This document shows, piece after piece, positions 43,133 to 49,319 of a stretch of 64,000 nt of DNA; the stretch's first letter is position 1; each line of letters opens with the position of its first letter. Source of the stretch: Raja brachyura (taxonomy: Eukaryota); contig OY740801.1 of the NCBI GenBank assembly GCA_963514005.1, positions 5,890,001-5,954,000 on the forward strand, in the 5' to 3' direction. Below the pieces are notes generated by a model that saw only the letters and a program-made list of their open reading frames with translations, ran no database searches and had not been told where the DNA came from. The translations under genes and the position numbers were made by a program.

Positions 43133-46100
43133 CAAAGATTGACCTAAAGAACGATTGATCTGGAGCGGGCTCTCGGAAAGCCATTCAGACGGGTATAGGC
43201 TGGAATACCCGACGCTGAAGAACTGAATGAAAGGAACACCAATATAGATGAAAATGACACAGCAACCCTGTGAAATTACGACAAAGCTGCATGTAAGCTT
43301 ACCACAGGTTGTCACAGGCAAACTTATTAGAAGTCAATCTTCTACCAAGCATTTAATACCTCCACAAAAACCATCCACTTTTTAAACAATTAAGCAATGT
43401 GGGATATTTCAATTTTTTGTGTTCAAGTACAACTAAGAAGTTCTATGCCACATGATTGTGGCTTACAAAATCAAACAATGCATTATAACAACATTGTCAA
43501 ACCATGTTCAGCACTATCCTGATTACTATAGCCACTAAATCATTTTTATTCTGTTCACTACCCCTACAATAATAAAGCAGTCTGCAACAATTTACGGTAA
43601 TATCTGGTCAATGAGCTAGGTATGATATAATTTCAATGCCAAGCAAACCCTCTTCGCTGTTTGGAACTCACACGGAGCTCCACCAGCAATTTGCTTTCCA
43701 CACCAGCTGAGTACCTCCAGCAGTTAGTTTTTTGCTCCAGATTTCAGTATCTGCAGTCTTTTGTGTCTTCCCCCTGCATTTAACAGCATGACCATGGCAG
43801 AGTCTCCTATGATCAAAATCCTAGGTGTCAATTTTACACTAACACCCGAGCTACCCGAGATTAGCGACTCAGCAGAGATTAGACTTACCTTTGACCTCAG
43901 AACCAACCGACCACCAAAATATTTGGTCAGCAATGTTCCTTAACTCACCAGGTGCCCAGTTTGGTCAAGCAACAACCAAGGAAATTAAAACAATTCTAAA
44001 CACCCATGTTCATTTGGCTCAATAGGCAAGCATTTCACAACTGTCAGTACAAAATATAACATAACCACGATCTACTGGCTGCTTGAAACATTAGGGTCAT
44101 TTTGTTATCTTTCCTAGCCTAGTGTGAGGGAGGTTACTTCGTACAATCTTCATTGAGTTTTTCTGAGATGGCGAGAAAGATGCTTGATGAGGGTCGGACA
44201 GTAGATGATGTGTACATGACTTTAGTGAAACAACAAAGTCCTTCATGGAACTGGTTCAGAAATTAAATCACATGGGAACCATAGCGAGTTGGTAAGTTGA
44301 ATTCAAAACTGGCTTGTTCATAGAAGACATAAGGTAGTGGTGGAGCGGCGTATTCTGGCAGTTATATTCTGCAAGGATCAGTGCTGAGACCTCTTATTTG
44401 GATTATTGATAAATGAAATGAATGGTACAAACAGAAAGTTTACAGATGGCACAAAAGTAGGTGGAATTCCAGATAGTGAGGAACTTTGTCAAAGGATATA
44501 GCAGAATATAAATCAGTTGGAAGACTGAAGTAGAAGTGGGGAAATGGCACATAGAATTTAATCCAGACGAGGTCAAATGCAAGAGGAACCTACACAGTAA
44601 CCTTCGGAGCATTGATGTAGAGGGAATTGGTGGGGGGGGGGGGGGGAGGCAAATCCATAGTTGCCTGAAAATTGAATTTAATTTGCATCACTGATTGCAG
44701 GAAGACTTATTTGATGGTGTATATTCAGTTCAGTACTCCAGTAATCCAATGCCAAGTACAGACTCACTGATTTGTATGTATTTTTTTTGAACTACAAGAT
44801 GGTGAACACATTTCCAATTCCATTAAAATAAATCACACATCCCATTTAAAAACAACTCCAAAACTAACAAATTTAAAATGTAACAAAACCATAATGAACA
44901 TATTTTCCTCTGCCAGCAGAACTGCTGTGACATTCTACACACATTAAACACAAGCAGAAGCAATGAAGGCTCAATATATTTGATAGAAGATGACAAAATG
45001 TTCAACACTTAAGACGCGATATATTTGACAGAAGTGAATATACCGACTTTATAGCTGGAGGACTACATAATTACTATATTTGAGCAAAAGAAAATATAAA
45101 CTGCTGGAGGACCTCAGCAGGTCAGGAAGCATCTGTAAAGGGAACTGTACAAGATAGCATTCCATGGTTCAAGTCTCGTTTCCAAGTGTAGAGAAGGGTC
45201 CCGATACAAAACGTTACGTGTCCATTTCCCTCCAGAGATGCTGCCTGACAAGCTGAGTTCCTCCAGCACTTTGTTTGGATCAAGCCTCATATCAATCTGC
45301 AATTAACCTGCAAGGCTGCAAATTTGAGAGATGGATATTTACCCATTCCCTCTACAGATGATGCCTGACCCACTGAAACCCTCCAGCACTTTGTGATTCC
45401 AACATCTGCAGTTCCTTGTGTCTTCATTTCCCCATCAATGCTTGCTGATCAATACACTTGCAAGGCTACAGATTTCCTCAAATGCAGAAAACTCGATATA
45501 TAATTGTGATAAGCTCCAGTGAGATAGGCACTTCCCCATCAATACAGGCACATGGAACAGCAGATGCTGGTTTATAAACATAGGCACAACGTGCTGGAGT
45601 AACTGTGGGATGGGCAGCAATTCGGGAGAACATGAATAGGTGACATTTCAGCTTGTGACTGATCTGAAGAGGCCTTCGAACCCAAAACATCACCTATCCA
45701 TTTTTTCTTAGACATGCTGCCTGACTCGGTAAGTTACTCCAGCACATTGGGTCCTATTTCCCAGTTAATGCTTGCTAAGTAATACACGTACATTTCTCAA
45801 TCTTAGAAAGCTTGATATAAAAATATGATAAGCCTCTCAGCGAGAAGGAGACTTGTCCATCAATGTTTGGTGAGCTATACACTTGCATTTCCCAATCGCA
45901 GTAAGCTCAGTATACAAGTATGATAAGCCTCCAGTAAAATGGAATTTCCCGGACAATGTTTGATGAACATTACTGCTACATTTCTCAATCGCAGTAAACT
46001 TGGCATACAAATATGGTAAGCCACCAAGCAAAAGGATTCGGACCCAAAACGTCACCCATCTGTCTGAAGAAGGGTCCCGACCCGAAAAGTCACGCTTCCT

Positions 46101-46406
46101 TTATCTACAGAGATGCTGCCAGATCGACTGAGTTACTCCAACACTTTGTGTCTATCTTTCAAATAAACCAGCATCTGCAGTTCTTTGTTTTTACTTCCCC
46201 ATCAATGCTTGGTGACCAATACCAGTGCACTTTCCAATCGCTGTTAACATGGTATACAATTATGATAGTAAGATAGACCCAGTAAGATCGACACTTCCCC
46301 AACAATGTGTAGAAAAGAACTTCAAGATGCTGGTTTACATCAAAGATAGATACAAAACGCTGGAATAACTCAGCGATTCAGGCAGCATCTCTGGAGAAAA
46401 GGAGTA

Positions 46407-48468
46407 TGGTGTATAATGTTTGGGACAAAGAACCATCATTTATTTATTTGCCTCTGTACACAATTTGAGATTTGTAATTTTTAAAAATCACATAGTTAAA
46501 GTGCACATTGTCAGATTTTATTAAAGGGTATTTTTTATACATTTTGGTTTCACCATGTAGAAATTAATGCTGTGTTTATACATTGTCCCTCCATTTCAGG
46601 GCACCATAATGTTTGGGACACATGGCTTCACAGGTGTTTGTAATTGCTCAGGTGTGTTTAATTGCCTCCTTAATGCAGGTATAAGAGAGCTCTCAGCACC
46701 TAGTTTTTCCTCCAGTCTTTCCATCACCGTTGGAAACGTTTGTTGCTGTTTATTATCAACATGAGAATAAGATGGAGAGCACTGGTGAGCTTACTAATAA
46801 TTGCAAAGGGACTGGCAGGCCAAGGAAGACCTCCACAGCTGATGACAGAAGAATTCTCTCCATAATAAAGAAAACCCCCCAAACACCTGTCCAACAGAGC
46901 AGAAACATTCTTCAGGAGTCAGGTGTGAATTTGTCAATGACCACTGTCCGCAGAAGACTTCATGAACTGAAATACAGACGCTACACTGCAAGATACAAAC
47001 CACTGGTTAACCGTAAACATAGGATGGCCGGGTTACAGTTTGCCAAGATGTACTTAAAAGAGCAACCACAGTTCTGGAAAAGGGTCTTGTGGACAAATGA
47101 GACGAAGATTAACTTGTATCAGAGTGATGGCAAGAGCAATGTATGGAGGAGAGAATGAACTGCCCAGATCTAAAGAATGCCACCTCATCTGTGAAACATG
47201 CTGGTGGGGATGTCATGGGCTGGGTATGTATGGCTGCTGAAGGTACTGACTCACTTATCTTCATTGATGATACAACTGCTGATGGTAGTAGCATAATGAA
47301 TTCTGAAATGTTTCAACACATTCCATGTGCTCAAGTTCAAACAAATGCCTCTAAACTCATTGGCCGGCGGTTCATTCTGCAGCAAGACAATGATTCCAAA
47401 CATACTGCTAAAGCAACAAAGGAGTTTTTCTAAGCTAAAAAATGGTCAATTCTTGAGTGGCCGAGTCAATCACCCGATCTGAACTCAATTGAGCATGCCT
47501 TTTATATGCTGAAAACAAAACCGGAGGGGACTAGCCCCCAATACAAGCATAATCTAAAGATGGCTGCAATACAAGCCTGGCAGAGCATCATCAGAGAAGA
47601 CACCTAGCAACTGGTGATGTCGATGAATCGTAGACTTCAAGCAGTCGTTGCATGCAAAGGATATGCAACAAAATACTAAACATGACTACTTTCATTTACA
47701 TGACATTGCTGTGTCCCAAACATTATGGTGTCCTGAAACGGGGAGACTATGTATAGGGAGGTTGCATGGCAGTCGAGGTCACGACCCACGACCCATGCCC
47801 AGAGTCGCGGCCCCACTCCACCCGGCCGTGTGTGTGGGCACTGCCGACCCACAGCCCGTCACAGTGCGGCCGTACAGGGTGAGACAGGGCCAGACAGCGC
47901 TGACCACAGGGGGAGAGTGGGGGCTGTCCCGAGGAATGCGCTCCTTCGGCCGCTTACACCTTGGTGCTCGGGTTCAGACCACTCGGTCACCCTCCAGCTC
48001 TGGGCGGTTGTGAGCCGGGGCATGCCTTCAATCCGCCGACACGCTGCTCTTTCGCAAGTCAGCGAGCAGCAGTGATTTTGGCGGTTTTCTCTCACGGTTA
48101 CCCCTATTTCCTGAAATTTTTACAGCGCAATAATTGACCATTTTGCCAGTTAACAGGCAAGAATGTATGTGTTGCTAGCAAAATGTGTGTTACTAGCAAA
48201 ATGCTGGTATCTGCCTTGTACTCCAGAAGGATTGAGCTACTCTGTGCGTCACGCCCTTTGACCTGATGGCCTTGCGTACAACCTCACTATAAACACTGCT
48301 GTAATTTCTACATGGTGAAACCAAAATATATTAAAATGGCCTTTATTAAAATCTGACTGCACTTTAACCACATGTGATTTTTTTTTCTATTACAAATGTC
48401 AAATTGTGGAGTACAGAGGAAAATAAATAAATGATAGGTCTTTGTCCCAAACATTATGGAGGGCACTG
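46407..48468 (+). mobile_element. Tc1-family DNA transposon, IR/DR type, defective
   Basis: ~210-bp TIRs each with two ATAATGTTTGGGACA direct repeats; transposase remnants GRPRKT, VLWTNETK, QQDNDSKH, WPSQSPDLNSIE, ending TKY*; right end ...GGGCACTG; TA at 46405-46406. Confidence 0.92.
47756..48287. mobile_element. Unclassified non-autonomous DNA element inserted in the right TIR of the Tc1
   Basis: TATA duplicated at 47752-47755 and 48288-48291; imperfect TIRs GGGAGGTTG / CAACCTCAC; removing it restores the Tc1 TIR (CTATGTATAAACAC). Confidence 0.8.
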
Positions 48469-49319
48469 CAGGTGACGTTTCGGGTCTACTCCTTTACTCC
48501 AGAGATGCTGTCTGGCCCGCTGAGTTACTCCAACATTGTGTGTCTAACTGCCCCAACAATGCTTGTGTCAGCGATACGCTTGCATTTCCCAATCGCAGTT
48601 AACTTGGTATGCGATTGTGATAAGCCTAACAGTAAGATAGACACTTCCCCACCAATGTTTGATGAACAAAACACCTGTATTTCCCAATCGCAGTTATTAA
48701 CTTGATATACGATTATGATATGCCTCACTGCAAGATAGACACTTCCTCAACAACGTTTGGGTGATACACTCGCATTTCCCAATCGCAGTAAACTTGGCAG
48801 ACAATTGACAAGACACTTCCTCAACAATGTTTGGTGAACAAAATACTTGCATTCCCCAATCGCAGTGAACTTGGTATGCATACAATTATGATAAGCCTCC
48901 CAGTAAGATAGACACTTCCTCAACAATAGACACAAAATGCTGGAGTAACTCAGCGAGACAGGCAGCATCTCTGGATAAAAGGGTCTCGACCAGAAACGTC
49001 GCCCATTCCTTCTACCCAGAGACGCTGCCTGTCCCACTGAGTTACTCCAGGAATTTGTGTCTGTCTTCGGTTTAAACCAACATCTACAGATCCTTCCTTC
49101 ACACTTCCTCAGCAATGCTTGAACAAAACACTTGCAGTCCCCAATCGCAGTGAACTTGGCATACGTGTATGATAAGCCTCGCAGTAAGGTAGACACTACC
49201 ACAACAATACTTGGGCGAGCAATACATCCTCATTCCACAATCGCAGTGAACTTGGCAGACAATTAATTATGAGAAGCCTGCACTGTGGTGGACACTTGCC
49301 CATCAATGGCTGACTGTAT

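Follow-up and report, generated by a model that had tools for sequence, protein, structure and literature searches.

Penelope-like elements (PLEs) that carry an endonuclease (Penelope/Poseidon, Neptune and Naiad) typically insert as head-to-head, 5'-truncated ends with an optional one-sided tail of 30-40 bp, short target duplications and a minimal hammerhead motif (PMC8557442, PMC3846280, PMC4209133; all papers are cited here from the portions of their text available to us). Little has been settled about the way in which PLEs select and cleave their targets. Insertions have been reported at AT-rich sites, in microsatellites, at telomeres and, for the endonuclease-less PLE-X, in 28S ribosomal DNA (rDNA) (PMC11167929, PMC8557442), and in vitro work on an anole element gives just an AT-rich or ATT preference (PMC11167929). 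Here, we analyze a 64,000-nucleotide stretch of the skate Raja brachyura (GCA_963514005.1, contig OY740801.1, positions 5,890,001 to 5,954,000; hereafter the window, with positions counted from its first letter), in which five PLE-derived inserts end at the same register of an old minisatellite in the first intron of a SMURF-family E3 ligase gene.

The inserts share with the endonuclease-bearing PLEs the head-to-head truncated ends, the one-sided tail, the short duplications and the hammerhead-like motif. They differ in their target: the known bias is toward AT-rich DNA or (TA)n and (CA)n microsatellites, whereas here it is one register of a complex unit of about 95 bp. Poseidon of Anolis carolinensis (PAc) offers a biochemical parallel. 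Its protein, a predicted dimer, cleaves and extends both strands with a preference for 5'-ATT-3', and its tail lies between two internal reverse transcription (RT) start sites (PMC11167929). However, the available text of that paper describes the genomic targets of PAc just as AT-rich and mentions no recurrent site, nick spacing or preference at the first two positions after the nick. PLE-X of Selaginella does occupy a fixed site of a tandem repeat, the 28S rDNA (PMC8557442), but it has no endonuclease and targets a conserved functional gene, whereas most of the copies described here are dispersed and their local target is a non-coding minisatellite. Fixed-site insertion into tandem repeats is familiar from target-specific non-LTR elements (R2, Utopia and Keno) and Dada transposons, of which several families share one site of a tandem array, sometimes the same array (PMC4640811, PMC8869645); these elements use other nucleases on conserved multicopy RNA genes, usually with strong specificity, in contrast to the at least 22 PLE events that lie outside our array. 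The model of a PIWI-interacting RNA (piRNA) cluster as a trap likewise describes a locus that gathers element fragments (PMC13269885). As judged from the DNA alone, our locus differs in having no strand bias, a target of about 1 kb, and a single element class plus one nested Tc1.

A search of full-text literature, outside of which lay most subscription papers and Repbase reports, turned up no account of a PLE with an endonuclease that enters a complex minisatellite repeatedly at one register, and the available part of PMC12910113 holds nothing on target sites. The array amounts to a natural experiment with 12 sites, which displays both predicted nick positions, their fixed 14-nt spacing, tails that can fall on either side, and GC junctions that were used next to GT, AC and GG junctions that were not. 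By inference it supports an origin of head-to-head PLE dimers from priming at both nicks. It also suggests, from one locus, that PLEs choose their sites more precisely than has been assumed.

Five Penelope-like inserts at one register of a minisatellite

The minisatellite (45426-49307, plus strand) consists of 11 units of 74-104 bp, about 95 bp each, spanning 45426-49293, and a closing 14-bp motif (49294-49307). Its end lies 231 bp from the donor of SMURF exon 1, i.e. inside intron 1 and beside a CpG island, which agrees with the sequence-only reading of this DNA that about 11 diverged units begin about 230 bp inside intron 1 of SMURF1, a gene name that is tentative (see below). Pairwise identity among units is 62-89%, and the array reads as an old minisatellite that is no longer homogenised. 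From left to right, U1 (45426-45529) lies between the tails of inserts R1 and L1; U2 (45756-45850), U3 (45851-45943) and U4 (45944-46031) follow, the last without its final ~8 nt beside insert R2; U5 (46193-46292) lies between the tails of R2 and L2; U6 to U9 occupy 48547-48913, with U8 short at 74 bp; and U10, U11 and the closing motif occupy 49103-49307. The closest pair is U9 and U10, at 89%. To the left, 45278-45325 is a probable decayed remnant (U0, plus strand) made up of a motif end and a U1-like start, which shares with U1 an 11-bp insertion; 20 of 2,000 shuffles score as high. At up to two mismatches, 3.05 copies of the 14-bp motif are expected in the window; 18 are present, 13 of which lie within the array, and none of 100 shuffles reaches 18. 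A unit profile run across the 64 kb found no further copy below E=2.6. The left-hand units and inserts appear more diverged than the promoter-proximal ones, and some units carry GATA-, ETS- or CCAAT-like words, which may be fortuitous.

PLE ends meet the motif at 5 of the 12 junctions of the array (45426, 45756, 46193, 48547 and 49103), and three inserts also abut a left motif copy (at 45544, 46307 and 48928). All eight ends fall within about 2 nt of the motif edge, at a fixed site, which bears out the claim that five PLE segments end at the motif. R1 (45326-45425, plus strand) is a single arm of an old C-type subfamily with an internal deletion; its tail meets the motif at 45426, and it has no 14-bp left duplication. 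L1 (45544-45755) is a head-to-head dimer with its tail on the left, arms identical at 43/68 positions and a duplication at 45530-45543 and 45756-45769 (10/14). In R2 (46032-46192, plus strand), PLE ends form a direct partial tandem that includes a minimal hammerhead-like motif at 46064; the tail of R2 meets the 14-bp motif at 46193, a few target bases were lost at the insertion site, and a left duplication is absent. L2 (46307-48546) is a dimer with its tail on the left, arms identical at 50/62 positions and a duplication at 46293-46306 and 48547-48560 (13/14). R3 (48928-49102), also a dimer, has its tail on the right, arms identical at 48/56 positions and a duplication at 48914-48927 and 49103-49116 (13/14). 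These duplications match the earlier figures. The earlier description of the inserts as head-to-head dimers applies to L1, L2 and R3, but not to R2 or R1, and a decayed Tc1-type DNA transposon (46407-48468, plus strand; Pfam HTH_Tnp_Tc3_2, E=1.3e-14) is nested in the tail arm of L2 and splits this insert. This element of ~2 kb has long terminal inverted repeats (~200 bp, 146/163 identical), and its interior includes a further GC-rich piece at ~47757-48285.

One arm carries the tail in 5/5 array inserts, and 3/5 have an inverted partner. A target-site duplication is present in 3/5, and is clear in 9/20 of the background elements examined; the 14-bp length is unexceptional, because background duplications measure 7-16 bp. 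Elsewhere the window has head-to-head PLE dimers at 6 positions, and the array dimers themselves are ordinary. An old C-type head-to-head dimer, R0 (45084-45277), adjoins U0 off the motif register. The R0-U0 region (45084-45325), in which U0 shares a private insertion with U1, could contain a ~60 bp duplication made by R1.

The assignment of the inserts to PLEs runs through a reference copy outside the array (32459-33272), in which the same end sequence continues into a fragment coding for a GIY-YIG-associated C-terminus (32793-32945, minus strand). The 51-aa peptide of this copy aligns with the C-terminal end of a protein from Leucoraja erinacea at 82% identity (E=1.8e-15); in that protein, a GIY-YIG match lies just upstream of the shared C-terminus (Pfam E=0.008, under the curated cut-off); the peptide alone has no match in Pfam. 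The best array arms (R3, R2 and L2) are ~71-80% identical to the end of the reference copy. By sequence the inserts are PLE ends, and their link to a GIY-YIG endonuclease passes indirectly through this copy. A scan of the window with short motifs found no fragment of the telomerase-like PLE RT, and the window has no full-length PLE in which the Zn-finger-like linker between RT and endonuclease, or an RT phylogeny, could separate Penelope/Poseidon from Neptune. The RT part of the Leucoraja erinacea protein may belong to another element fused to it by gene prediction, and Atlas look-alikes of this protein score 0.79 or less and are leads only. A putative hammerhead pattern (core, stem II and GAAA) occurs in R2 (46064), in 5 background copies and in 1 unrelated match; Rfam gave no PLE hammerhead at gathering score.

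Sequence and context of the hotspot

We compared the density of inserts with that of the rest of the window. The 22 PLE events in the 60,018 bp outside the array predict 0.39 events in the 1,052-bp empty array, compared with the 5 observed (P(>=5)=5e-5); the count of 22 misses at least one older PLE copy, and an assumed 30 events give P=2e-4. In the background, no stretch of 1.1 kb has more than 3 events. A register shared by chance has P = 1e-8 to 8e-6. These density and register values are uncorrected for a window picked by eye. With 22 events outside and 5 inside, most copies are dispersed, and the PLEs here are not a target-specific family, although locally they behave like one.

The junction has a two-strand signature. 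If the duplication is read as the product of nicks that leave 3' overhangs, its top-strand edge is A-A-T^G and its bottom-strand edge, 14 nt away, is A-G-T^G, so that both edges read A-R-T^G (^ marks the nick) in an arrangement that yields a 14-bp duplication. In the rebuilt empty array, the junction itself accounts for 6 of the 8 strict opposite-strand site pairs spaced 7-16 nt apart. The motif is followed by GC at 5/5 occupied junctions and at 0/7 empty ones, which have GT (5), AC or GG instead; a perfect split by one or two columns arises in 4 of 792 labelings of the 19-nt context and in 11 of 462 over the whole unit. All five array tail junctions start with A-Y-T. The sequence-only reading had noted no target-site consensus elsewhere in the window, which is mostly right, except that 2/5 of the B-type tail junctions outside the array also start with A-Y-T (P=0.017; 3/5 if one end is moved a base earlier). 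One outside B-type tail junction (52787) has A-R-T^G-C.

Several observations weigh against this short signature as the cause. The A-R-T^G rule was derived after the fact from the array itself, and A-R-T^G-C is found in only 1/18 background nick contexts. Across all subfamilies, only 2/13 background tail junctions start with A-Y-T (P=0.10); none of 4 C-type background junctions does, yet a C-type element used the array site once. No single column discriminates perfectly, as C alone is present at 5/5 occupied but also 1/7 empty junctions, and only the dinucleotide separates the two. All 9 sites outside the array with A-Y-T, 8 nt and A-A-T-G-C are empty (Fisher p=0.0005 vs 5/5 in the array). Of the 10 strict pairs spaced by 14 nt there, 9 are likewise empty and the tenth overlaps an element end. 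A looser pair at unit offset 36, present in 6 units, was never used. By itself the 14-mer does not account for the hotspot, since sites that match it elsewhere in the window have no insert. The proposed PLE target preference is therefore partly supported: paired A-R-T^G sites and the association with GC stand, and sufficiency of the 14-mer does not. We made no use of the A or T that precedes the nick in 18/18 background contexts, as 6/9 duplications had 1-4 shared bases assigned to the element and the other assignment breaks the rule.

We consider it probable, with real room for doubt, that the array is a passive, recurrent PLE hotspot in an old minisatellite by the SMURF promoter, dependent on both sequence and context, for which no host function is needed. 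Going by the anole PLE, a PLE protein, probably a dimer, would nick both strands at the junction 14 nt apart. Each 3'-OH would then prime reverse transcription from one of two internal starts, with or without the ~40-nt tail, so that priming at both nicks would yield a head-to-head dimer, the same duplication and a tail on either side. Because the site is pseudo-symmetric, with A-R-T^G on opposite strands, both orientations are expected. The strength of the hotspot would need more than the short motif, either a longer sequence in the unit or germline chromatin that is open next to the CpG island.

Insertion history and rival explanations

The sequence-only reading had argued from opposite orientations that the insertions were independent, and had proposed phylogenies of inserts and units as a check. 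We built a tree of 33 PLE arms (121 columns) and a tree of the units (94 columns, with the +2 column omitted). In the first tree, the 10 arms that lie within the array or adjoin it, including the two R0 arms, are scattered (8 label changes vs 8.9 in shuffled labels). A single clade is rejected for these 10 arms (approximately unbiased (AU) test, p=0.0007) and also for two subsets of them, namely the 7 B-type arms (0.021) and R1+R2+R3 (0.0013). The unit tree rejects a clade of the five occupied units (p=0.006), of U1+U5+U10 (0.031) and of U2+U6 (0.039). Diagnostic words assign R1 to the old C-type group and spread the other array inserts over different B-type groups. Inversion junctions, too, vary among the array inserts. 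Arm-to-arm identity in the array dimers (given above for L1, L2 and R3) compares with 94/98 and 82/83 in young background dimers, and suggests different ages. Because one clade is rejected for the array arms and for the occupied units, independence of most of the insertions is supported. We estimate four to five insertion events, and two at the very least.

The phylogenetic check does not settle every subset. The L1 and L2 tail arms (p=0.14), the L arms as a set of four (0.07), R2+R3 (0.08) and U1+U5 (0.39) are each still compatible with a single clade, and the trees have few strong branches and rest on only 121 and 94 columns. These unrejected clades would fit a partial co-amplification, in which two or three real insertions occurred within a block of 4-5 units, the block was duplicated, and its copies were later blurred by decay and conversion. 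Such a history would also account for the periodic occupancy of the array (R L.. R L... R..), with which the +2 base after the motif runs in step (C C T T C C T T T C C). An R directly precedes both L inserts in 360 of 7,920 arrangements (4.5%, a hand count made after the fact), and the R1-R2 identity of 64% is near the U1-U5 identity of 70%. We nevertheless judge this history quite unlikely in view of the rejected clades (R1+R2+R3, U1+U5+U10 and U2+U6), the C-type words in R1 versus the different B-type words in each of R2 and R3, the differing inversion junctions, and an arm-to-arm identity that ranges from 63% to 86%. In addition, L1 groups, with a weak support of 83/84, with the copies at 6800/7044, and L2 has words in common with the copy at 34275. 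Recombination between inverted arms should be unable to switch the tail side, which would require at least two events regardless. A different origin, in which repeated targeted insertion built the array, with the 14-bp motif as the duplication each time and the ~81-bp body as a short retroposed element, we regard as very improbable. It would explain why both limits of the array fall close to the edge of a motif, with n+1 motifs for n bodies, an outline that plain tandem duplication yields equally. The window contains no dispersed copy of the body, adjacent motifs are no more alike than in shuffled order (2,907 of 20,000), and the remnant U0 stops mid-unit.

What the hotspot recognizes, and whether the host profits from it, invites two further explanations. 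The junction could resemble the element's own end in antisense, so that PLE protein or RNA takes it for its own pseudo-long terminal repeat (pLTR)/tail junction; an 11-nt identical word would lie across the short RT start site, followed by a 7-nt gap and a second block containing G-C, and the unit may itself be a decayed PLE end. This would explain the use of GC over GT and the emptiness of short-motif matches elsewhere, and PLE endonucleases do cut element-derived DNA, as reported (PMC11167929). The 11-nt word is in the consensus of all B-type arms, where a word of equal length appears in 23 of 3,000 shuffles, and the junction-zone alignments are matched by 5-15 of 1,500 shuffles. With a consensus of background copies only, the word shrinks to 9 nt (250 of 3,000 shuffles), the junction zone is matched by 40-123 of 1,500, and the whole unit by 784 of 2,000. 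The zone and gap costs were set after the match was seen, the word is missing from the C-type insert R1, and the RT start of the anole element is not homologous to the DNA that is cut, according to the available text (PMC11167929). Whole-unit scores are never significant (126-602 of 1,500) and a PLE profile misses the units, so we rejected homology of the whole unit to a PLE end. The resemblance is suggestive when the comparison is confined to the junction zone and vanishes over the whole unit. We regard this form of recognition as unlikely. A broader version is a homing-like self-recognition, in which those vertebrate PLEs that carry an endonuclease would recognize an extended target on both strands, one that mimics their own pLTR/tail junction, and the minisatellite would be a multi-slot decoy in which successive subfamilies fill all GC junctions while resistant variants stay empty; this seems to us unlikely but by no means negligible. 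If the self-mimicry is true, PLEs would join the sequence-directed retroelements; otherwise the locus is an instructive local hotspot with no shown host function. The sequence-only reading had also offered a transposon trap beside an active promoter that turns captured PLE ends into hairpin RNA. In a host-maintained form of this trap, the array would be kept to capture PLE ends and convert them, through the SMURF transcript, into hairpin or small RNA. In its favor, the inserts are predicted to fold into long hairpins on the transcribed strand (R3 z=-11.6, L1 z=-6.2, R2-U5-L2 z=-10.0), several subfamilies of differing age were captured, and mismatches in R3 lean toward G-U pairs on that strand (5 vs 1). 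However, dimers are the normal PLE product and the same hairpins form at the 6 other dimers in the window; L1 (7 vs 8), L2 (4 vs 4) and R2-L2 (10 vs 8) have no G-U bias, and the four array pairs together give 26 vs 21, without consistency. The captured pieces lie in both orientations, with no mark of strand or hairpin selection; inserts and units are decaying, and none of the 9 arms that a young PLE subfamily has in the window lies in the array.

Nor did the units reveal a function that the host might maintain. Folding of 3 of the 11 units on the transcribed strand was no better than that of shuffles (z = 0.03, 1.45 and -1.6). Invariant columns number 20 of 94, compared with 13 expected under uniform rates, without clustering, and the observed autocorrelation of conservation is reached in 4,074 of 5,000 permutations. 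No RNA family was found by Rfam at gathering score in the 64 kb (8 matches in the region are sub-threshold), and a search of the units for tRNAs found none. We rejected a coding role, since the units, at lengths of 74-104, are out of frame. A non-LTR retrozyme, as described in the available part of bioRxiv 10.64898/2026.07.22.740005, is a tandem repeat with a hammerhead in each unit, and hammerhead motif scans of the repeat units returned 0 matches. The unit probe and the element probe each had 0 matches in bacterial and archaeal genomes, where host contamination could have supplied further arrays or flanks. We therefore find the trap that yields hairpin RNA unsupported and think a host-maintained one highly unlikely, and we retain the passive hotspot.

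The host gene and other features of the window

The first coding exon of the SMURF-family E3 ligase lies at 49539-49593 on the minus strand, with its donor at 49539/49538; intron 1 runs from 49538 and is ~41 kb long. Other exons of this minus-strand gene lie near 8274 and 6598, the latter matching SMURF1 and SMURF2 equally. A CpG island (49310-50120) covers the promoter and exon 1, with an observed/expected CpG of 1.35 vs 0.42 for the window. Within it is a GC-rich tandem repeat of ~72 bp (49840-50114), with a 48-nt core present four times and recurring palindromic CpG words. Importin-alpha exons (59914-62856, minus strand) lie upstream of the SMURF gene and in tandem with it; we dropped a bidirectional promoter for the two genes, as the importin-alpha exons share the minus strand of SMURF. 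We tentatively take the two genes to be SMURF1 and KPNA7, from the N-terminus or sequence and from synteny. Elsewhere in SMURF intron 1, 15070-18414 (minus strand) holds long, frameshifted endonuclease and reverse transcriptase frames like those of a long interspersed nuclear element (LINE), presumably of CR1 type by resemblance.

The young PLE subfamily is found at 12485-12581, 32459-33272, 42040-42246, 50709-50807, 56556-56911, 57258-57382 and 57733-57852. Its arms are near-identical, 5 or 6 copies have perfect duplications of 7-16 bp, and several junctions share 1-4 nt between the target and the start of the element. An older PLE-like dimer of a distant subfamily (39227-39443), with a 14/15 duplication and an ATG in the hammerhead core, escaped the profile search. 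In four independent dimers (42040-42246, 48928-49102, 52797-52976 and 59690-59876), the inversion junctions fall repeatedly close to one short purine-rich overlap next to the hammerhead stem, suggesting that the two cDNAs have a preferred point of joining.

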